Shown here piece by piece: positions 27,598 to 63,990 of a stretch of DNA of 64,000 nucleotides (its first letter is position 1; every line of letters begins with the position of its first letter). This stretch comes from an uncultured Lachnospiraceae bacterium. GTDB taxonomy: Bacteria > Bacillota > Clostridia > Lachnospirales > Lachnospiraceae. Position numbers and translations under genes: made by a program. Location: positions 8,137-72,136 of the forward strand of contig CATJIO010000174.1 of assembly GCA_949740725.1 (NCBI GenBank), written 5' to 3'. A model generated the notes under the pieces. That model saw only the letters and a program-made list of their open reading frames with translations, was not told the origin of the DNA and did no database searches.

Positions 27598-28527
27598 TTA
27601 TGTCTTTTCACCAAAATATTTTTGAAACAGACGTCGTGCATCTTTGGCAAGCTCATTTTCCATGGCCAGATAACGGGTTAAGTAATCCTTTGATTTGGGG
27701 GTAAGCTGGGAAAAGCCGCCGTCAGCACCGCCGGACTGAGTGAGTAAAAGGGGGAAGCCCAGGTGCTTTTCTGCCTCTTTTACAATCTTCCAGCCTTTGC
27801 TGTAGGACATGTGCATCTGCCGGCAGGCGGTCTGCATGGATCCGGTGTGCTCCACCAGACTTAAAAACTGGGCGATCCCAGGGCCGAAAAAGATGTCGTC
27901 CCCTTCCAGATACAGCTGCAGGACGCTGTGGATGGGGATCTTTTGGGAGCGGTCATAGCGGCTTTTACAGTCTTCCTCCGTCTCAATGGAAAGGCTGATT
28001 CCTTGATCCTCCACGGGAATTTCTTCAATCAGAGTATTAATGGAATCCTGGCGCAGGGCGCCATTCAGTCCACCAGGGCCTTCATAGCGGAGGAGAGAAG
28101 GAATAAGGGAGGTGGATAAAAGGACTGGATGACCGCGCCGCCCATTATACACGGGACAGGCGGCCTTTTTTTTGGTCTGGAGAAGCTGCCTGACGGTATT
28201 CTCCAGAAATAAAGGATATTTTACTGGAAGAATCAGCACTTGACTGCAGAGATCCTCCACATAATTCAATCCCATCCGCACACTGTCAAACATTTGGGTA
28301 GTCTGGTATTCTTCATTGCGCAGACAGATGATCCGCAATTTGGACACATGTTTTTCGACTTGGTCTCCGTCCCGGCCGGTGACGATGACGATGGGGTCGA
28401 TTTCCGCCTGCCTGAGCATGATAATGATGCGGCGGATCACTGTGGTTCCCCCGATAGGCATCAGAGGCTGAAAATTTTCCTGAGACAGATTGTGGCCGGC
28501 TGCGATGATAACGGCTCCTGTTTTCAT
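27598..28527 (-). CDS. Fusion of degenerate MocA/MobA-like NTP-transferase domain and C-terminal ModE-type winged HTH
   Basis: N-term GAVIIAAG...GRRGHPVL; C-term FFGPG...TGS...MSYSKGW...LGFPLL...GGADGG..LT; start MKTGAV at 28527. Confidence 0.8.
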   Translation of the reverse strand: MKTGAVIIAAGHNLSQENFQPLMPIGGTTVIRRIIIMLRQAEIDPIVIVTGRDGDQVEKHVSKLRIICLRNEEYQTTQMFDSVRMGLNYVEDLCSQVLILPVKYPLFLENTVRQLLQTKKKAACPVYNGRRGHPVLLSTSLIPSLLRYEGPGGLNGALRQDSINTLIEEIPVEDQGISLSIETEEDCKSRYDRSQKIPIHSVLQLYLEGDDIFFGPGIAQFLSLVEHTGSMQTACRQMHMSYSKGWKIVKEAEKHLGFPLLLTQSGGADGGFSQLTPKSKDYLTRYLAMENELAKDARRLFQKYFGEKT

Positions 28528-28602
28528 AATGGCTTCCTCGCTGGACATTTTTTTGAAACAAATAGAGTATACCACGGATGCAGGAGTCTGAACAGTAACC
28601 AT

Positions 28603-28631
28603 TTGTAATCCCTTCACCTATACGGTATACT
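28603..28631 (+). promoter_or_regulatory. sigmaA promoter of yqeC fusion (divergent extended -10 TGGTATACT on minus strand at 28566-28574)
   Basis: TTGTAA-17nt-TATACT. Confidence 0.6.
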
Positions 28632-28665
28632 AAGGACAGAATTAGGATGTGCTTAAAGGAGTGCT

Positions 28666-29961
28666 GTGCAGATGAAAAAAGGATATGTAATTGCTGTGGT
28701 GGGTTCCGGGGGAAAGACCACTCTGATAGAAACCATTGCCAGGCAGGCTAAGAATTCTGGAAAGAAGGTGGTAGTGATGACCACCACTCATATGAGACTT
28801 CCAGAACGGGACAGCGCAGTAGGAAGGCCTCTGGAGGAGGCGGCAAAGCAGATGGAGCGGGAGGGATTAATCTATTATGGCGTTTATGGGGATGAAGAGG
28901 GAAAGATGGGATATCCAGGAAGGGAGGCATATGAAAGGCTGTGCGAAAGGGCGGATGTGGTGTTGGTAGAGGCAGACGGATCCCGAAGGCTTCCCATGAA
29001 GGCGCCTGACTGGTCCAGGGAGCCGGTAATCCCGGTAAATGCGGACATGGTGCTGGTGGTATTTGGCCTTTCCGCTTTGGGAAGACCTCTGAAAGAAGTA
29101 TGCCACCGTTGGAGGCTGGGCCTTCCATGGATTTTGGACACTCAGGGACAGGCGCCCAAGGAGCCGGGTTGCAGCCTTGTTACAGAGGACATGGCAGCAG
29201 AATTTCTGGAGAAGGGGTATTTAAAGGCTATCCGTACACGCTATCCGGATGCGGGCCTGGTCACGCTCCTGAATCAGGCTGATGGAAAGGCAGCGCAGGA
29301 GAAAGGGGAGCGGATAAGGAAAGGTCTGGCACAGAAGGGCTATGCGGCGCAGGTGATTTGCCTAAGGCAGATGACCTTATCGGTGATTTACCTGGCCTCC
29401 GGCTTTGGAAAGCGGTTTGGGAAGAATAAGCTTTTGGAAATACTGGAGGGAAAGCCTCTGTTTGCCCATGGGCTGGGGACAATCCTGAAATTGAGGGCTT
29501 ATTTAGAGGCGGAAATGGGGATCCGGACCAGAGTGGTATTGGTGAGCCAGTATCCGGAGATTCTGGATTTTGGAAAAGAGATGGGGGTGGAAGTGGTGGA
29601 AAATCCCTGTGCGGCAGAAGGGATTACCGCGTCTATCCGTCTGGGGACGGAGGCAGCTGGGGAGAATGAGGATTATTACCTCTATGCTGTAGCCGATCAA
29701 CCCTGGCTAAGGTGGGAGACCGTGGCAGGGCTGATCCAGCATTTTCTCCCCCGAACCTATTCGGATCAGGTATCCATAGGATGTTTGGCCTGCGGCAAAA
29801 GGCAGGGGAACCCGGTGATCTTTCATAAAAGGCACCGGGCAGAACTTCTCACCCTGAAGGGGGATAGGGGGGGAAGCCAGCTGATAAAGCGGTACCCTGA
29901 AGAGGTGATGGAATATCCGGCAGAGGCCGGGGAGCTGGTGGATATTGACACGCCAGTTTAA
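28666..29961 (+). CDS. yqeC: YqeC selenium-cofactor protein fused to MocA-like Moco cytidylyltransferase
   Basis: VVGSGGKTT, MTTTHM, VEADGSRRLPMKAP..EP (YqeC); LASGFGKRFGKNKLL, VADQP, GNPV, GDRGG, DIDTP (MocA). Confidence 0.87.
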   Translation: MQMKKGYVIAVVGSGGKTTLIETIARQAKNSGKKVVVMTTTHMRLPERDSAVGRPLEEAAKQMEREGLIYYGVYGDEEGKMGYPGREAYERLCERADVVLVEADGSRRLPMKAPDWSREPVIPVNADMVLVVFGLSALGRPLKEVCHRWRLGLPWILDTQGQAPKEPGCSLVTEDMAAEFLEKGYLKAIRTRYPDAGLVTLLNQADGKAAQEKGERIRKGLAQKGYAAQVICLRQMTLSVIYLASGFGKRFGKNKLLEILEGKPLFAHGLGTILKLRAYLEAEMGIRTRVVLVSQYPEILDFGKEMGVEVVENPCAAEGITASIRLGTEAAGENEDYYLYAVADQPWLRWETVAGLIQHFLPRTYSDQVSIGCLACGKRQGNPVIFHKRHRAELLTLKGDRGGSQLIKRYPEEVMEYPAEAGELVDIDTPV

Positions 29962-40840: not shown

Positions 40841-40869
40841 TTGGCTATAGTCGTTAGATAGACTATAAT
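40841..40869 (+). promoter_or_regulatory. sigmaA promoter with embedded palindromic operator
   Basis: TTGGCT-17nt-TATAAT overlapping TATAGTC-8nt-GACTATA (40846-40867). Confidence 0.6.
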
Positions 40870-54145: not shown

Positions 54146-54385
54146 ATGGCGAGAGTAAAGAAGCCAATGGTGGTGTTTACCTTTCATACCACCACCCAGG
54201 CGATGCTTATGGAGCAATGGGGTAAAAAGGAGGGCGCTGGGGGACGGCTGATTCCGGTGCCCAGGCAGATCTCCGCCGGATGCGGCATGGCTTGGTGCGC
54301 TCCCCTCTCGGAACGCCCGAGATTGGAACAACTGACAAGAGAACGTGAAATAGAAGTGGAGGATGTGTATGAGCTCCTTTTGTAA
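54146..54385 (+). CDS. DUF3343 domain protein
   Basis: VFTFHTTTQAM..E, GRLIPVPRQISAGCGMAW. Confidence 0.85.
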   Translation: MARVKKPMVVFTFHTTTQAMLMEQWGKKEGAGGRLIPVPRQISAGCGMAWCAPLSERPRLEQLTREREIEVEDVYELLL

Positions 54386-56954
54386 AGTTTGGATTAATGG
54401 GACAGAGATGGAAGTGGATTCGGAGAGAAAGCTCATTGATGTGCTGAGGAGAGACTGCCATTGCAAATCCGTAAAGGACGGCTGCAGCGAGGGCGCCTGC
54501 GGCACTTGCACAGTTTTGGTGGACGGAAAAGCCACCAAGGCCTGTGTGCAGAAGATGAGCCGGATGGAGGGAAAGCATATCCTGACGGTAGAGGGATTAA
54601 GCCAGCGGGAGAAGGATGTTTTCGTCTACGCCTTCGGAGAGGCAGGGGCGGTACAGTGCGGATTCTGCATTCCTGGCATGGTAATCTGCGGCAAAGGGCT
54701 TTTAGACAGCAACCCCGACCCAAGCCGGGTGGAGATCGCCTTTGCTATTCGGAATAATTTCTGCCGCTGCACTGGCTATAAGAAGATTATCGATGGGATC
54801 CAGCTGGCAGGGAGAATGCTCCGGGAAAGCCTGACTCCGGAGGATATGGAGAAAGAGAAGAATGCCGGGGAAAAGGTGAAGGTGGGCAGCCCCATCCACC
54901 GGGTTGATGTGGAAGGAAAGGTGCTGGGAACAGGGGAGTATGTGGATGACATTGAGTTGCCGGGGATGGTCTACGGCAGCGCGGTTCGCAGCAAATATCC
55001 CAGAGCCAGGGTACTTTCCATTGACACCAAAAAGGCCAAGGCACTTCCTGGGGTGGTGTGTGTTTTGACTAAGGAAGATGTGCCGGGAAAGAATAAAGTG
55101 GGCCATTTGAAACAGGATTGGGATACCATGATTGGCGTGGGAGAGATCACCCATTATCTGGGAGATGCCATCGCCCTGGTGGCGGCGGAAACGCCGGAGA
55201 TCCTGGCGCAGGCCAAAGAACTGGTGGAAGTAGCGTATGAGGAATTAATTCCTATGACCTGTCCGGAGGACAGCCTAGCGGAGGGTGCGCCAGAGCTTCA
55301 CGAAGGGGGAAATATCCTGAGCCATGAGCACCTGGTGCGGGGAAATGCAGAGGAAGTCATCGCCAATTCCAAATATCAGGTGACCAGGCATTATGAGACT
55401 CCCTGGACTGAGCATGCCTTCTTGGAGCCGGAGGCAGCGGTAGCGTTCCCCTTTGAAGATGGCGTTTTCGTCTATTCCACGGATCAGGGGACGTATGACA
55501 CTCGCCACGAGACATCAATCCTGCTGGGCCTTCCTCCAGAGAAGGTGATTGTGGAGAATAAGCTGGTGGGCGGCGGTTTTGGAGGCAAGGAAGATGTGAC
55601 GGTGCAGCATCATGCGGCGCTCATCGCTTATCTCACCAAAAGGACGGTGAAATGTAAGCTTACCAGAAAGGAAAGCATCCTGGTTCATCCTAAGCGCCAT
55701 CCCATGAGCATTGATATGACTCCCGCCTGTGACGAAAATGGGATGCTTACAGCCATGAAGGCAGTCGTTGTTTCCGATACCGGGGCATATGCTTCCCTGG
55801 GCGGCCCAGTCCTCCAGAGAGCCTGTACTCATGCGGCAGGACCGTATAATTATCAGGTAATCGATATAGACGGGACGGCGGTGTATACCAACAATCCTCC
55901 GGCTGGGGCGTTTCGGGGCTTTGGGGTGACCCAGACCTGTTTTGCTACAGAGTGTAATTTGAACCTGCTGGCGGAGATGGTGGGCATCAGCCCCTGGGAG
56001 ATCCGTTACCGCAATGCTATCCGGCCAGGGCAGGTGCTTCCCAACGGGCAGATCGCTGATGCTTCCACCGGATTGGCAGAGACTTTGGAGGCGGTGAAGG
56101 AGGCCTACGAGAGCAGCCCCTACGTGGGGATCGGCTGTGCCATGAAGAATGCAGGCGTGGGCGTGGGGATCCCGGATACCGGACGTGTGCGACTGATGGT
56201 GGAGGATGGGAAGGTGCATATCCATGCCGGCGCTTCCTGTATCGGCCAGGGCCTGGGAACCGTACTGGTACAGATGCTCTGCGAGACTTTGGAGGAGAGT
56301 GTGGACCGGATGGTCTATCACCAGCCAAATACCGGAAAGGCTCCGGACTCTGGCACCACCTCTGGTTCCCGCCAGACGCTGATCACCGGCGAGGCGGCCA
56401 GAAGGGCTGGCGGGGAATTAAAGGCCTGTCTGAAGGAGGCTGGCGGCGACTGGTCTAAATTGGAAGGCAGGGAGTTCTATGGAGAATATCTGGCAAAGAC
56501 GGATAAGATGGGAAGTCCAGTGCCCAACCCAGTATCTCACGTGGCTTACGGCTATGCCACCCAGGTGTGTATCCTGAACGAGGATGGCACAGTGAAAAAG
56601 ATTGTGGCGGCTCACGATGTGGGCAAGGCGGTGAATCCCAAGAGCGTAGAGGGCCAGATCGAGGGCGGAGTGGTGATGAGCTTAGGTTATGCCCTGACGG
56701 AGCAGTATCCGTTAAAGGATTGTGTGCCCAGCGCTAAATTCGGTACCTTGGGGCTCTTCCGGGCAGATAAGACGCCAGAGGTGGAGAGCATTGTGGTGGA
56801 AAAAGAGGGCATTGACGTGGCCTACGGGGCTATCGGCGTAGGGGAGATCACCTCTATTCCCACAGCGCCAGCGGTACAAGGGGCCTATTATCGATGGAAT
56901 GGAGAGTTCCAGACTTCCCTGCCATTAACAGGGACGCCTTACCGGAAGAAGTAA
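54369..56954 (+). CDS. xdh: Selenium-dependent xanthine dehydrogenase-family molybdoenzyme (2Fe-2S and Mo subunits fused)
   Basis: GCSEGACGTC, QCGFCIPG, CRCTGY, VGGGFGGKE, GAFRGFG, GQIEGG; start at 54369 behind GGAGG. Confidence 0.92.
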   Translation: MSSFCKVWINGTEMEVDSERKLIDVLRRDCHCKSVKDGCSEGACGTCTVLVDGKATKACVQKMSRMEGKHILTVEGLSQREKDVFVYAFGEAGAVQCGFCIPGMVICGKGLLDSNPDPSRVEIAFAIRNNFCRCTGYKKIIDGIQLAGRMLRESLTPEDMEKEKNAGEKVKVGSPIHRVDVEGKVLGTGEYVDDIELPGMVYGSAVRSKYPRARVLSIDTKKAKALPGVVCVLTKEDVPGKNKVGHLKQDWDTMIGVGEITHYLGDAIALVAAETPEILAQAKELVEVAYEELIPMTCPEDSLAEGAPELHEGGNILSHEHLVRGNAEEVIANSKYQVTRHYETPWTEHAFLEPEAAVAFPFEDGVFVYSTDQGTYDTRHETSILLGLPPEKVIVENKLVGGGFGGKEDVTVQHHAALIAYLTKRTVKCKLTRKESILVHPKRHPMSIDMTPACDENGMLTAMKAVVVSDTGAYASLGGPVLQRACTHAAGPYNYQVIDIDGTAVYTNNPPAGAFRGFGVTQTCFATECNLNLLAEMVGISPWEIRYRNAIRPGQVLPNGQIADASTGLAETLEAVKEAYESSPYVGIGCAMKNAGVGVGIPDTGRVRLMVEDGKVHIHAGASCIGQGLGTVLVQMLCETLEESVDRMVYHQPNTGKAPDSGTTSGSRQTLITGEAARRAGGELKACLKEAGGDWSKLEGREFYGEYLAKTDKMGSPVPNPVSHVAYGYATQVCILNEDGTVKKIVAAHDVGKAVNPKSVEGQIEGGVVMSLGYALTEQYPLKDCVPSAKFGTLGLFRADKTPEVESIVVEKEGIDVAYGAIGVGEITSIPTAPAVQGAYYRWNGEFQTSLPLTGTPYRKK

Positions 56955-58478: not shown

Positions 58479-59054
58479 TTACGAATGGTCAAGCCCCTTT
58501 AGCGCGCAAGCGCTCAGCCGGGCGAGAATCGCCTCGCGGTATTGGGCATGGTGGGGCATTCCGCCTCCCATTCCCCCAAACTTTGGCAGCATAAGCTTGA
58601 GAAAATTACCATTTTTCATGGTGATAGAGCAGTTAAACGACCCCATCCATCCCTTTTTGACGACGCATTTTCGTATCTCGTCCAGTGGGAAGCAGCTGCC
58701 CACATCCTGGACAGCGATAGTGGTATGGAGTTCCTCTGCCACAGTGCCGTTCAGATCCGGATGATCGTTAAATTCATAAAGGTGCATGTACGATTCACAT
58801 TCGGAAAGGATCAAATAATGCTGAGTTATCCCGATATATACATCCGATTTTGAGTACTTGCACTTGCTGATTTCCAGGGTAGCTCCATTTTTTTCCGGGA
58901 TCAGCTGCTCTCCGATAAGAATGCAATTTACAAAAACCTGTTTAATTTCTGATGCAATTCCAATACCATGTATGCCTGCGATCAGCGTTTCGCCTTTGGG
59001 AATCCGCTGCTCTAAATATTGTATCATAGTTTTTTCATCGAAAATACTGGACAT
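58479..59054 (-). CDS. Hypothetical protein
   Basis: 191-aa ORF with AAGGAGG RBS, directly downstream of the Imm51-like gene. Confidence 0.7.
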   Translation of the reverse strand: MSSIFDEKTMIQYLEQRIPKGETLIAGIHGIGIASEIKQVFVNCILIGEQLIPEKNGATLEISKCKYSKSDVYIGITQHYLILSECESYMHLYEFNDHPDLNGTVAEELHTTIAVQDVGSCFPLDEIRKCVVKKGWMGSFNCSITMKNGNFLKLMLPKFGGMGGGMPHHAQYREAILARLSACALKGLDHS

Positions 59055-59072
59055 AGAGGCCTCCTTTACAAA

Positions 59073-59598
59073 TTAATCCCACTCAATCTCGTTGCCTTCT
59101 TCTCTTATAATTCGATATAGCTCATCTTCATGATCAATCAAAGATACCCTTAGTGGACAAAGGGACACACGGTTTTGCACCACAGCAGTGGGATTCTGCC
59201 GCTAAGGCACAAAACTCCTTTGGATCCCAAGTACCGGATTTTGGTGACTGGCAAGGCAACGGAATGAGGCGTACTGGACGTACGCCGATTGACGGTAACG
59301 CCGCCAGCCGCCAAAAGACGGCCCTTGGGGCGTGTATCCCCTTGTCCACTGAGGGTATGATAATCTCGGCAAAGCATTCAGCCTTTTGTTCATTTTCCCT
59401 GGTTAATGTATAGAAGGCGGCATAAGAACCTGCTTCTGGGTCACTGTCCATTCCTTTCAAAAGATCCGGTGCATGTTTTGAAAGGTAGTAATTGAAAAAA
59501 GCGTCCCAGTTGTAGCCATTCATATAGGCATTTTTATTGATTTCAGCCATCCTTTCACCAATGGAAAAGGGTTTATCAATTTTTACGTAGTCAGGCAT
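59073..59598 (-). pseudogene. Imm51-like immunity protein interrupted by a MITE
   Basis: AYMNGYNW...DPEAG motif; removing 59147-59357 restores a 104-aa ORF ending AEIIISLIDHEDELYRIIREEGNEIEWD*. Confidence 0.8.
59147..59355. mobile_element. 209-bp MITE with 25-bp TIRs and TA target-site duplication
   Basis: TIRs CCCTTAGTGGACAAAGGGACACACG / CCCTCAGTGGACAAGGGGATACACG (22/25 identical), flanked by TA at 59145-59146 and 59356-59357; no transposase. Confidence 0.88.
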
Positions 59599-59812
59599 CG
59601 CAACACTCCTCCTTAAAAGATTCTAAGAGATAATCGGTTAAGTTTTTAATGATTCTATTATACTGCAATTATTTTCCATATGAAATAGGTTTTTTATAAA
59701 AAGGAGTAGTAATAAATCAGATACAAAGACGAAAAAATATCCCAATATACAAAAAAACTATGTTATGATTAAAAAAACGAAAGGCTTTGCTCACAGGCGA
59801 AGCGCGGACGGG

Positions 59813-59848
59813 AAGCCGGTCTGTTTAAAAGGCAGACGGGCTTTTTTT
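59813..59848 (+). terminator. Terminator-like hairpin in the 5' region of yedE
   Basis: AAGCCGGTCTGTTT-AAA-AGGCAGACGGGCTT followed by a T-run. Confidence 0.6.
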
Positions 59849-59855
59849 ATACCAC

Positions 59856-59879
59856 CGTTATATTTTTGAAAATATAACG
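59856..59879. promoter_or_regulatory. ModE-type operator
   Basis: Perfect palindrome CGTTATATTTT-TG-AAAATATAACG, matching the 24-bp CGTTATAT-N8-ATATAACG ModE box. Confidence 0.65.
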
Positions 59880-59906
59880 AAAATTACAATTCAGGAGGAA
59901 TGGAAA

Positions 59907-60962
59907 ATGGATACTAAGAAAATGTTGGCCCTTTGGGGCGTGCTGCTGGGAGGGATTGCCGGGGCGCTGGCATTCTTCGGAAATCCGGGAAATATGGCCT
60001 TTTGCATTGCCTGTTTCGTCAGGGACATGGCCGGGGCGGCCAGGTTTCATCAGGCGGCCATTGTTCAGTATATGCGGCCGGAAATCATGGGATTGATCCT
60101 GGGGTCTTTTGCCATCGCTCTCGCCGGAGGGGAATACCGCTCTACTGGAGGATCGTCTCCGATGATCCGCTTCTTGCTGGGGGTGATTACCATGATCGGC
60201 GCGCTGATTTTTTTAGGCTGTCCTCTGCGGATGGTGCTGCGGATGGCAGGAGGAGACTTAAATGCGTACGTGGCCTTTGTGGGCTTTGGCTTTGGGGCGG
60301 CAGTGGGAAGCTTTTTTCTGAAAAGAGGCTTCAGCCTGGGGAGGGCCTATGATACGCAGAAGACAAGTGGGTATGTGCTTCCAGGAATTATGGCGCTGCT
60401 GCTGGCCCTTAGCCTGACGACTTCCGTTTTCACCGCCAGCACAGAGGGACCGGGCAGCATGCATGCGCCTCTTCTCCTTGCCCTGTCCGGCGGCCTTCTC
60501 TTCGGCGCCATTGCCCAGAAGGCCAGGACCTGTTTCGCAGGGGGAATACGGGATGCGATCCTGATGAAAAACTTTGACCTTCTGACGGTAATCGGGGCAT
60601 TATTTGCAACAATGCTTGTTTATAATGTGGCAGCTGGGAAATTCGCCCTTGGCTTTGCAGGACAGCCGGTGGCCCATACGGAACATATCTGGAACTTCCT
60701 TGGTATGTTTACTGTGGGGCTGGCAGCAGTCCTGGCAGGGGGATGCCCTTTGCGGCAGCTGATTCTGGCGGGACAAGGATCGGGAGACTCTGGGATTTAT
60801 GTGGTCGGCATGTTTGTGGGAGCTGCGATCTGCCATAATTTTGGATTGGCCTCCAGTGGGAATGGAACTACAGCGGCGGGAAGGATTGCCTGTGTGGTCT
60901 GCATTATCTTCTTGCTGGCTGTGGGGATGGGATGCAGGAGGGAGAGCGCTATCAAAAAGTAA
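59907..60962 (+). CDS. yedE: YedE-family putative selenium transporter
   Basis: GNPGNMAFCIACFVRD, QYMRPEI, GCPLR twice, multiple TM segments. Confidence 0.9.
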   Translation: MDTKKMLALWGVLLGGIAGALAFFGNPGNMAFCIACFVRDMAGAARFHQAAIVQYMRPEIMGLILGSFAIALAGGEYRSTGGSSPMIRFLLGVITMIGALIFLGCPLRMVLRMAGGDLNAYVAFVGFGFGAAVGSFFLKRGFSLGRAYDTQKTSGYVLPGIMALLLALSLTTSVFTASTEGPGSMHAPLLLALSGGLLFGAIAQKARTCFAGGIRDAILMKNFDLLTVIGALFATMLVYNVAAGKFALGFAGQPVAHTEHIWNFLGMFTVGLAAVLAGGCPLRQLILAGQGSGDSGIYVVGMFVGAAICHNFGLASSGNGTTAAGRIACVVCIIFLLAVGMGCRRESAIKK

Positions 60963-60984: not shown

Positions 60985-61188
60985 ATGGAAATCGATGTCA
61001 GAGGGTTGTCTTGTCCAGAACCGGTTTTGATGGTTATGGATGCTATGGACGAAAACCCGGGGGAAAGGCTAGTGGTGCAGTCCGATGCGGCCCATACGCG
61101 GGACAATCTGGTAAAGCTGGCTCAGACCGAGGGGCGGAAAGCGACGGTTTCTGAGCATGGCAGGATTTACGAAATTGTGATAGAATAA
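60985..61188 (+). CDS. TusA-family sulfur/selenium carrier
   Basis: [12 protein letters not shown]; AAGGAGG RBS; start trimmed from ORF track. Confidence 0.85.
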
Positions 61189-61243
61189 GATAATCCTTCA
61201 GACGGCAGGCATGCCGTCTGAAAGGCTGGTACAGAAAAGAGGG

Positions 61244-62275
61244 ATGAGATTGAAGGAAGAACAACCAGTATTTTGTAAAGGCGGTGGATGCACGGCGAAG
61301 CTGGGGCCGGGGGCGTTAAGCCGTGTCCTGGAACAGATTCCAAAAACTTATGATCCGAATCTGCTTATTGGCTACGACAGCTCTGATGACGCTGCGGTAT
61401 ATCGTCTGAGCGATGACCTGGCCATTGTGCAGACGCTGGACTTTTTTCCACCTATGGTGGAGGATCCTTATACCTTCGGCCAGATCGCCGCGGCTAATGC
61501 GCTGAGCGATATCTATGCCATGGGCGGGGAGGTGAAAACCGCATTAAATATTGTCTGCTTCCCAGAATCTATGGATTTAAATATTTTAGGGCAGATCCTC
61601 TTAGGAGGCAGCGAAAAGGTGCGGGAAGCAGGAGGTGTGCTGGCGGGGGGACATTCCATCGCAGACCAGGATGTGAAATACGGTTTGTCTGTGACCGGGG
61701 TGATTCACCCAGGCCGGATATTTGCTAATAACGGATGTCAGGAGGGGGATGTGCTTCTGCTGACTAAGCCGCTTGGCGTGGGGATTGTGTGCACGGCTTC
61801 CCGGGTGGGAGAGGCGTCGAAGGAGGCCATGGATCTGGCGGTAAAGTCCATGACCACCTTGAATAAATATGCGGCAGAGACAGTGAAAAAATACCGTACT
61901 CATGGCTGTACCGATGTGACGGGATTTGGCTTCCTGGCTCATCTGTGTGAGATGCTGGGAGACCGGTTCAGCGCGGTGATCCATCAGAAGGCGATTCCTT
62001 TTATCCCAGAATGCCCAGAGTATGTGGAGGAGTTTTACCTGACCGCCGCCGGTCAGCGAAACCGAAATCATGTTCAGGACAAAGTTCAGTTTGTGGACTG
62101 CTCCTTTGCCATTGAGGAGATCCTCTACGATGCCCAGACCTCCGGCGGCCTTTTGGTCAGCATGGAGGCGGAAGACGGAGAGAAGGCCTTGGAGGAATTA
62201 AAGGCATTGGGCCTGCCCTGCGGCATTGTAGGACGTGTGGCAAAAAAGGGCAGGAAGACAGTGGTGGTTCAGTAG
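61244..62275 (+). CDS. selD: Selenide, water dikinase (Cys form)
   Basis: [50 protein letters not shown]. Confidence 0.95.
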
Positions 62276-62415: not shown

Positions 62416-63099
62416 ATGAGGCTGGATGAGAGAGGAAAACCATGCCCGCTGCCAGTGATTGAGGCGAAGAAGGCACTGGAAAAGGTGGAGCCGGGGGACA
62501 TGGTGGAAGTTGTGGTGGATAATGAGATTGCTGTACAGAATTTAAAAAAACTTGCCAGCCATAAGGGGCTGGAATCTACTTCTGAACGGATGAGCAGTCA
62601 GGAATTTGTGGTGTCCATCAAGGCCGGGGCAGGGAAAGCACCTGAGCAGGACAGGTTATTCAATCAGAAGGGGGCGTCCGGTCAGGCCAATACCGCTGGT
62701 CAAAGGGAAGATGGGGGCCAGGAAGAGGACAGGGAAATCACCTGCCAGCCAGATATCCGGGATAAGAGTATGGTGGCAGTATTATCCTCAGACCAGATGG
62801 GGCAGGGAGATGAGGCTTTGGGAAGGCTGTTGATGAAGGGCTTTGTCTATGCATTGACTCAGCAGGACAAACTTCCGGGGACAGTCCTGCTCTATAATGG
62901 AGGCGCCAGGCTTTCCTGTGAAGGCTCAGATTCTCTGGTGGATTTGAAGGAGCTTCAAACCCAGGGGGTGGAGATCTTAACCTGCGGCACCTGCCTAAAT
63001 TATTACGGGTTGGGAGAGAAGCTGGCCGTGGGCTCGGTTACCAATATGTATGAAATCACAGAGCGGATGACTGGTGCAAAAAAGCTTGTGCGGCCTTAG
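62416..63099 (+). CDS. yedF: YedF sulfurtransferase-like selenium metabolism protein (TusA plus DsrE-like domains)
   Basis: RGKPCPLPV, VDNEIAVQNL, LGRLLMKGF, YNGG, CGTCLNYY, VGSVTNM. Confidence 0.9.
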   Translation: MRLDERGKPCPLPVIEAKKALEKVEPGDMVEVVVDNEIAVQNLKKLASHKGLESTSERMSSQEFVVSIKAGAGKAPEQDRLFNQKGASGQANTAGQREDGGQEEDREITCQPDIRDKSMVAVLSSDQMGQGDEALGRLLMKGFVYALTQQDKLPGTVLLYNGGARLSCEGSDSLVDLKELQTQGVEILTCGTCLNYYGLGEKLAVGSVTNMYEITERMTGAKKLVRP

Positions 63100-63162: not shown

Positions 63163-63990
63163 ATGTCTAATCGCAGCAGCCAGTTTATTATCGTCCGGGG
63201 AGGCGGGGATATTGCCACCGGGACCATTCATAAGCTTCACCGGTGCGGATACCCGGTGCTGGTTTTGGAGACTGGATATCCCTCGGCCATTCGCAGGCAT
63301 GTGGCCTTTTCTGAGGCAGTGTACGATGGTTTCAGCGAGGTGGAAAATGTCCGGTGCATTCATGGAAAGGATTATGAGGAGGCAAAGGAGATTCTGGCCG
63401 GAGGAGATGTAGCCCTTTTAGTGGATCCGGAATGCAGGGTATTGGAGAGGGCGCGTCCCTGGGCGCTGATCGACGGCATTCTGGCGAAGAAAAATCTGGG
63501 AACCAATCGGGATATGGCGGACAAGACCATTGCCCTTGGGCCTGGGTTTTGCGCAGGGAAGGATGTGGATCTGGTGATTGAGACCATGAGGGGCCATAAC
63601 CTGGGACGAATTATCGGGAATGGCTGTGCGCTGCCCAATACTGGAATTCCCGGGAATATTGCGGGATTTGGAAAAGAACGGGTGATCCATTCCCCGGCCA
63701 GGGGGATTCTCCGGGGACTCTGCCAGATTGGGGATAAAGTGAAAAAGGATCAGCCAATCGGGGTGGTGGTCACCGGGCAGGGGGAGGTGATGGTGAAAGC
63801 CACCATGGACGGGATTCTCCGGGGGTTAATCCGTTCTGGCTATCCAGTAACAGAAGGGCTTAAGATTGCGGATATTGACCCGAGAGAATCAGAGTTTGAA
63901 AACTGTTTTACTATCTCCGATAAGGCTAGGTGCATCGCTGGTTCGGTGCTGGAAGGCCTGCTTTACCTGGAAGAAAAGCAAGGGAAATAA
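63163..63990 (+). CDS. yqeB: Selenium-dependent molybdenum cofactor protein YqeB
   Basis: VRGGGDIATG, IRRHVAFSEAV, DGILAKKN, ETMRGHNLG, KIADIDPR, ISDKARCIAG. Confidence 0.93.
   Translation: MSNRSSQFIIVRGGGDIATGTIHKLHRCGYPVLVLETGYPSAIRRHVAFSEAVYDGFSEVENVRCIHGKDYEEAKEILAGGDVALLVDPECRVLERARPWALIDGILAKKNLGTNRDMADKTIALGPGFCAGKDVDLVIETMRGHNLGRIIGNGCALPNTGIPGNIAGFGKERVIHSPARGILRGLCQIGDKVKKDQPIGVVVTGQGEVMVKATMDGILRGLIRSGYPVTEGLKIADIDPRESEFENCFTISDKARCIAGSVLEGLLYLEEKQGK

Follow-up and report, generated by a model that had tools for sequence, protein, structure and literature searches.

A ModE-type operator candidate shared by a selenium operon and a molybdenum cofactor/molybdate transport operon in an uncultured Lachnospiraceae bacterium

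The window analysed here is a stretch of 64,000 nucleotides on contig C174 of the genome assembly of an uncultured Lachnospiraceae bacterium (3.34 Mb in 185 contigs, 83% complete). At its 3' end lies an operon of selenium-related genes, preceded by a structured leader and by a 24-bp palindrome, to which we refer below as the box. The features of this locus are the following.

59761..59769, + strand: extended -10-like element TGTTATGAT, read from the sequence as the likely promoter for leader and operon
59783..59852, + strand: leader RNA with two hairpins (terminator scan; folding at -31.3 kcal/mol, z -4.4)
59856..59879, no strand assigned: ModE-type operator candidate (the box), with a CGTTAT-N12-ATAACG core and an AT-rich spacer, 13 nt 5' of the yedE ribosome-binding site (RBS)
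59893..59898, + strand: RBS of yedE, AGGAGG, from the sequence
59907..60962, + strand: yedE, putative selenium transporter (TIGR04112, 466.7 bits; cut-off 200)
60985..61188, + strand: small TusA-like sulfur/selenium carrier (PF01206, E 5e-14), listed as an open reading frame from 60799 but with its probable start at 60985
61211..62275, + strand: selD, selenophosphate synthetase of the Cys type (TIGR00476, 386 bits; GGGC active-site motif in the translation)
62416..63099, + strand: yedF, selenium-metabolism sulfurtransferase-like (TIGR03527, 207.7 bits)
63163..63990, + strand: yqeB, selenium-dependent molybdenum cofactor maturation protein (TIGR03309, 335.7 bits)
L130:1160-2368, past the window, + strand: sclA-like gene, cysteine desulfurase/selenocysteine lyase (TIGR01977), the last gene of the operon
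L130:2376-3320, - strand: LysR regulator, convergent to the operon, after the sclA-like gene (NF040786, 145 bits against a cut-off of 250)

The gene names yedE-tusA-selD-yedF-yqeB had been proposed in a first-pass annotation made from the letters of the window alone, and the NCBIfam and Pfam matches bear them out. The same annotation cautioned that mod or molybdenum cofactor (Moco) genes might lie further along the operon. This is not so: the sclA-like gene begins 32 nt past yqeB, just outside the window, and closes the operon, which, followed to that end, contains neither mod genes nor genes of Moco biosynthesis. Searches of the genome, 83% complete as assembled, found neither selA nor selU nor tRNA-Sec. 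The organism looks like the "orphan SelD" type, in which selenium is used for the cofactor of selenium-dependent molybdenum hydroxylases, and the window codes for several such enzymes, one of them at 54363-56954. As selA, selU and tRNA-Sec did not appear, these hydroxylases are the sole recognisable use of selenium, which makes a co-regulation of selenium and molybdenum supply sensible.

The box matches the pattern CGTTATAT-N8-ATATAACG without a single mismatch in a pattern scan of the window, and its 3' end lies 27 nt 5' of the yedE ATG at 59907, exactly where the palindrome had first been described. It is built of two arms of 11 bp around a non-complementary central TG, so that 22 of its 24 positions are palindromic. 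The next-best match in the window differs at 3 positions, and none besides the box has fewer than 3 mismatches; at this tolerance (3 mismatches or fewer), 0.11 matches were expected by chance, and none of 100 shuffles gave two. On the scale of the genome, the CGTTAT-N12-ATAACG core occurs exactly twice in 3.34 Mb, in the yedE leader and at a Moco/mod operon. By base composition, 0.23 genomic matches would be expected, or 0.006 when at least 10 of the 12 spacer positions are required to be A or T. The hexamer pair at other spacings from 8 to 16 never gave more than one exact genomic match, and a position weight matrix (PWM) made of 25 sites from the genus scored the yedE box at 37.4 bits and the second box at 36.0 bits, all other positions of the genome remaining below 12 bits. 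When up to 3 mismatches were tolerated, the 16-base pattern showed no genomic enrichment (15 matches vs. 22 for a reversed control). Since these loose matches are no commoner than the control, only the exact hexamer pair with its 12-bp spacing is informative. Judged by the latter, the box is more than a chance match.

Several additional sites were considered and set aside. The one at C156:5332 was dropped, as it lies inside a coding region, and those at C75:41490, C141:6889 and position 40852 of the window were inspected and found unconvincing. A palindrome at G000:C82:63043-63066 (GTTATAC-N8-GTATAAC, one mismatch from the core), found at a contig end 15 nt 5' of a gene for a GntR-family regulator, is probably the operator of that gene itself and unrelated to the box. 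The PWM scan of the organism's own genome placed no site at the xdh genes, at yqeC-mocA or at the gene of the candidate regulator described below, and so we see no sign here of autoregulation or of direct control of the hydroxylases.

The second box lies at G000:C69:11090-11113, 14 nt 5' of the ATG of a minus-strand operon composed of a moeA-like gene, moaC, moaA, a MOSC-moaB/Mog fusion, modA, modB, modC and an xdhC-like gene. Such a Moco/modABC operon is the classical kind of ModE target. Thus, the genome-wide scan, which the first-pass annotation had suggested as a check, led to a single other site, and this site heads the molybdate transport and Moco genes of the same organism. In the leader of this operon, TTTACA is followed after 17 nt by TATGCT, after 8 nt by the box and after a further 5 nt by GGAG, which places the box between a sigma-70 promoter and the RBS. 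About a dozen relatives share the arrangement TTTACA-N17-TATGCT, box, RBS; in these Moco/mod leaders, 8-13 nt separate the -10 hexamer from the box, which covers the start region and stops just 5' of the RBS. The operator of E. coli modA is generally described as overlapping the start region likewise.

A candidate for the protein that binds both sites is encoded in the window itself, next to a gene for a related transferase.

27598..28527, - strand: degenerate MocA/MobA-like NTP-transferase domain and ModE-type winged HTH (Pfam PF12804 and PF00126), hereafter the fusion
28666..29961, divergent from the former: YqeC-MocA fusion gene with the transferase motifs kept

The fusion gene had been noticed in the first-pass annotation; it does exist, but its strand had to be corrected to minus. 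The open reading frame spans 27598-28617, and translation probably starts at ATG 28527, because all homologs begin there. Over its C-terminal 100 residues, the protein matches TIGR00637, the ModE repressor domain (E 1e-12 to 4e-13; 48-51 bits, below the curated cut-off of 98.5), and the HTH matches the N-domain of a ModE-type repressor of known structure (PDB 2ijl, E 4e-10). Hence, the genome encodes a ModE-type winged-HTH domain, located C-terminally in the fusion and scoring under the curated cut-off. Apart from the fusion and its orthologs, no ModE-type HTH was found either in this genome (83% complete) or in five relatives that are 93-99% complete; a separate canonical ModE, the competing binder that had been foreseen for the box, did not appear in these genomes. 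Mop/TOBE domains are absent from the fusion, the sole genomic TOBE match falls in a 382-aa open frame, and the genome search found no ModE with Mop/TOBE domains. For want of these domains, the fusion is, by its domain composition, to be regarded as a relative of ModE and not as a canonical ModE.

The N-terminal domain of the fusion has lost the catalytic motifs of MocA/MobA. Its nucleotide-binding loop (G-x-x-R-x-G-x-x-K) has suffered an 8-residue deletion that includes the conserved Arg and Lys, and VKYP or AKFP stands in place of the DQP or DMP of the DxP motif; each change was seen in 9/9 aligned sequences of the fusion family, while the GRRGHPV block is kept. The in-window YqeC-MocA, aligned alongside, retains both motifs. 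We read the degenerate MocA-like domain as a putative non-catalytic ligand sensor, which would sense a pterin or Mo-cofactor species rather than molybdate. The intergenic gap that separates the regulator gene from the YqeC-MocA gene (28618-28665) contains no box.

Among 40 relatives searched for yedE, 11 matches came from 17 same-genus genomes. All 11 of these yedE leaders carry the box, set in flanks that are variable or even unrelated, and the distance from the box to the yedE ATG is 45-127 nt in the 10 leaders where it could be measured. In G006, a member of the genus without yedE, the box stands directly 5' of selD-yedF-yqeB. In G009, which belongs to the same genus and has the fusion, selD is found inside a longer operon, and no box occurs within 1.5 kb 5' of it. 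The box at the Moco/mod operon is present, exact or with 1 mismatch, in 14/14 same-genus genomes that encode a 66-91% identical fusion ortholog (the G016 leader was left out), and it is absent from the three same-genus genomes (3/3) that have the Moco operon and no close ortholog, although these genomes are kin and the counts are not independent. Two expectations that followed from the first-pass annotation, namely that the box should be conserved in orthologous leaders and that it should co-occur with the fusion gene, are thereby supported within the genus. Of the three genomes without the box, G007 has no homolog of the fusion, and G004 and G005 possess only a 37% identical MocA-like/ModE-HTH homolog. 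As this homolog adjoins a moeA-like operon that has no CGTTAT-N12-ATAACG box (loci L114 and L112, respectively), G004 and G005 may differ in operator specificity. The fusion gene and the Moco/mod box share a contig, 7-11 kb apart, in seven relatives.

To look beyond the genus, we surveyed the family with one genome for each of 300 genera, a sample less bound by kinship than the genus counts. Full-length fusions are present in about 30 genera, and stand-alone ModE-N HTH proteins (120-170 aa) in about 20. Orthologs of the fusion with 58-63% identity are known from Lacrimispora, Hungatella and Enterocloster aldenensis. Across the family, the 12-base core as such shows no enrichment (40 vs. about 63 of 301 genomes for the reversed control, the latter counted by eye). 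Outside the genus, therefore, the bare core gains meaning from genomic context only. Boxes at the Moco/mod operon exist in at least 3 other genera; in HTH-bearing genomes, where the surroundings of the core form a consistent picture, a box was seen before moeA-like or modABC operons in G116, G202, G189, G122, G130, G184, G305, G315 and G125, those of G202 and G189 with one mismatch each. Boxes less than 100 nt from ModE-type HTH genes are also found in other genera. In the six genera listed below, ModE-type HTH genes or the box occur inside selenium operons or directly 5' of them.

G186 (L121): box, stand-alone ModE-N HTH, selD-yedF-yqeB
G206 (L123): HTH, box, selD-yedF
G150 (L127): box, modAB, HTH, selD-yedF-yqeB
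G115 (L156): one-mismatch box, HTH, mocA, selD-yedF-yqeB
G319: box, sclA-selD-yedE-tusA, with a ModE-type HTH elsewhere in the genome
G185: HTH, box, yqeB-moeA-moaA

No yedE leader from 29 other genera, several of them carriers of the fusion, showed a box in 700 bp at up to 2 mismatches, and only 4 of the selD loci from 29 other genera had a box or an adjacent HTH. The link between the box and selenium operons is, then, recurrent but not general across the family. For the fusion this means that its connection with selenium stands in the genus but does not extend to the fusion family as a whole, given those 29 boxless yedE leaders. As for the stand-alone HTH genes, those of G186, G150 and G115 are open frames of 134-163 aa, and that of G206 is a 122-aa open frame with a stop inside the match; none of them has a sensor domain.

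The region between the probable promoter and the box deserves a separate description. Elements of the form TGnTATGAT or TATAAT occupy the place equivalent to TGTTATGAT in the yedE leaders of relatives. A consensus scan of the + strand from 59400 to 60000 returned no sigma-70 promoter, and none is conserved between the hairpin and the box. The second hairpin of the leader (approximately 59811-59845) is terminator-like, its T-run ending 7 nt 5' of the box; a hairpin lies 7-13 nt 5' of the box in 10/10 leaders shown and is terminator-like in most of them. A motif, GACGGRAAGCCGGTCTG..CAGACCGGC, is unique in the genome and recurs in 7/10 same-genus yedE leaders shown, always 7-9 nt 5' of the box. 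Such a structured leader may be an attenuator or a riboswitch-like element. In an Rfam search of 59000-60400 at permissive thresholds, nothing reached the gathering score, the best match being caiA with 19.6 bits against a gathering score of 55.5, and the Moco riboswitch gave no match even at E<=10. The yedE box is found in a less usual place for an operator, about 90 nt 3' of the likely promoter and after a terminator-like hairpin. The stretch is present in mouse-gut metagenomes (public runs). Metatranscriptome contigs are sparse; one contig of 151 nt from mouse gut covers 59797-59947, that is, the hairpin, the box and the yedE start, and offers a slight hint of read-through transcription. 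In a relative (L020), the 5' half of the leader is duplicated, and alternative pairing is possible there.

How does the box compare with systems already described? The E. coli ModE consensus is ATCGCTATATA-N6-TATATAACGAT (PMC2700814), and the sequence at 59856-59879 contains the repeat CGnTATAT-N8-ATATAnCG, in agreement with this consensus both in sequence and in geometry. The E. coli modABCD operator has the same repeat, the same 24-bp length and an AT-rich centre, and, like the second box, it is placed at or immediately past the point where transcription of a molybdate transporter operon begins. With the ModE regulon, the system shares molybdate uptake and Moco biosynthesis as targets and, as proposed here, a dimeric ModE-type winged HTH as regulator. 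Unlike E. coli ModE, the likely binder is devoid of Mop/TOBE and carries a MocA/MobA-like domain N-terminal to the HTH, which is the reverse domain order; unlike the ModE regulon, ours would comprise two operons only, one of them being yedE, tusA, selD, yedF, yqeB, sclA. The ModE regulons that we found in the literature contain molybdate transport, Moco synthesis, molybdoenzyme and nitrogenase-related genes only, and our literature search found no description of ModE-type control of selD, yedE, yedF, yqeB or selenium-dependent hydroxylases. What seems to be new, as far as can be judged from the literature searched, is a ModE-type regulon with selenium-cofactor supply as its second arm, together with a ModE relative whose sensor domain is probably cofactor-related.

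Three further systems invite comparison. The Moco riboswitch (RF01055) lies 5' of moa/mod genes in Clostridia and Proteobacteria and responds to the cofactor, not to molybdate (PMC2408646). It has Moco biosynthesis and molybdate transport operons as targets, as the box does, but it is an RNA, whereas the box is a conserved DNA dyad and the sensing is proposed to fall to a protein domain. LysR_Se and HrsM are the only transcription factors proposed earlier for prokaryotic selenium-utilisation genes (PMC5322559); their main association is with selenocysteine decoding, and selenophosphate is thought to be the compound that they sense. A weak relative of theirs adjoins the yedE operon, but they belong to another DNA-binding family with another type of site, and they would leave the identical box at the Moco/mod operon unexplained. 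BirA is similar in its logic only, as a cofactor-handling enzyme fold joined to an HTH, through which cofactor sufficiency could feed back on supply genes. BirA is, however, catalytically active, with its reaction intermediate serving as the corepressor, while the fusion has lost its transferase motifs and is not homologous to BirA.

Overall, we hold it to be quite probable that the box is an operator for a dimeric ModE-family winged-helix regulator, most likely the fusion, which couples the supply of selenium with that of the Mo cofactor. The first-pass reading, ModE-type control of the selenium genes with the fusion as candidate, hence finds support in the conservation of the box, in the genome scan and in the co-occurrence with the fusion. 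As we infer, the fusion, being the most likely binder, attaches to the box through its ModE-type DNA-binding domain, joined to the catalytically degenerate MocA/MobA-like domain. By means of one operator sequence, the bound regulator would act on two operons, one for selenium import, activation and insertion into the cofactor, and the other for cofactor synthesis and molybdate uptake. Since both boxes lie 3' of promoter elements, repression by blocked initiation or elongation is most likely the sign of control. Under repression, the selenium-dependent molybdenum hydroxylases would have their two supply lines switched in concert. In the yedE leader, with the box near +90, the bound protein might work as a roadblock layered on the putative attenuator.

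A more daring version of this scheme, which we offer as a tentative and rather doubtful suggestion, makes the degenerate MocA-like domain a protein sensor of molybdopterin or Mo-cofactor species. It would shut down Mo uptake, cofactor synthesis and selenium supply together once the selenium-dependent hydroxylases are saturated, and the roadblock at yedE may reinforce termination. If true, a cofactor of two elements (Mo and Se) would be under BirA-like feedback, and the domain would be a protein counterpart of the Moco riboswitch.

Other explanations differ from the preferred one in the sign of control, in the binder or in the nature of the site. It is improbable, yet worth keeping in mind, that the fusion, once on the box, activates transcription or serves as an apo-repressor that a ligand releases, so that the sensed pterin or intermediate would induce the selenium and Moco genes. 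More selenium supply while the cofactor is being made would be physiologically sensible, and E. coli ModE itself represses modABC and activates moaABCDE (PMC11980592). The positions of the box are, however, those typical of repression: 3' of the -10 element and just 5' of the RBS in every Moco/mod leader examined, and far 3' of the likely promoter in the yedE leader, with no box found 5' of a -35 element. We consider it unlikely that the box is a real operator bound by another protein, the fusion having some other role. A canonical ModE could be hidden in the unassembled 17% of the genome, which is 83% complete; the convergent LysR just after the operon has sub-threshold similarity to NF040786, the model for LysR proteins of selenium metabolism; and a GntR-type protein could be thought of, since a GntR gene on another contig stands behind a similar one-mismatch palindrome. 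On the other hand, none of the five relatives with 93-99% completeness has a ModE-type HTH beyond the fusion ortholog, an identical box stands at the head of the modABC/Moco operon, a classical ModE target, and the presence of the box follows the fusion ortholog within the genus. The proximity of boxes to ModE-type HTH genes in other genera (less than 100 nt) speaks for a regulator of this type as well. So does the geometry, a 24-bp dyad with a 12-bp spacer being that of ModE, while the usual LysR site is T-N11-A.

Very unlikely, in our judgement, is that the palindrome is no protein-DNA site at all but an RNA hairpin of the yedE leader, acting as a stabiliser, a ribosome-access element or a part of an attenuator, as the first-pass annotation had allowed. 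As RNA, the yedE box does fold into an AU hairpin of 10 bp (-6.7 kcal/mol, z -5.1), and it apparently belongs to the transcribed leader, preceded as it is by a promoter-like element and a hairpin resembling a terminator; the 151-nt metatranscriptome contig speaks faintly in the same direction, as does the weak match to caiA, which is nevertheless far under the gathering score. In the copies at Moco operons, however, only the outer 6-7 bp pair (-2.5 kcal/mol), although these copies are conserved equally well. Variation of the box is confined to position 7 (A/G), the centre and positions 17-18, and changes at 7 occur without compensation at 18, where G7 faces T, A or G. The invariant part coincides exactly with the outer hexamers at their fixed spacing, and the motif is the known ModE consensus for DNA. 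Such invariant hexamers, uncompensated changes in the inner arms and identity with the ModE consensus lead us to favour a protein-binding DNA site over an RNA stem, on the pattern of substitutions in the aligned copies.

If the box does operate as a binding site of the fusion, a concrete circuit emerges in which a single candidate regulator serves two operons through one operator sequence, and YedE, SelD, YedF, YqeB and SclA would be tied to Mo uptake and Moco synthesis. This bears on how selenium supply is regulated where molybdenum hydroxylases, such as xanthine dehydrogenase and other purine-degrading enzymes of gut anaerobes, depend on a labile selenium cofactor. It would also provide regulatory evidence, besides that of gene neighbourhood, for placing yedE, yedF and yqeB in the Mo-hydroxylase pathway, and it points to a ModE relative in which a dead cofactor-transferase domain has been swapped in for the molybdate sensor. 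How gut Lachnospiraceae degrade purines and urate currently attracts interest, and so the conditions under which these genes are switched on matter.

Finally, two arrangements of the box in other genomes should be mentioned. In G125 (C22; L119:4432-4494), two identical boxes, 39 bp apart from start to start, lie 5' of modA, and modA in turn precedes a ModE-type HTH gene. In G015, a member of the same genus, a third box (C78; L071:6035-6058) is located about 175 nt 5' of a gene for an XdhA-like molybdenum hydroxylase; a HutC-type GntR gene lies upstream of it on the same strand, and a degenerate second box-like repeat follows about 30 nt further on.
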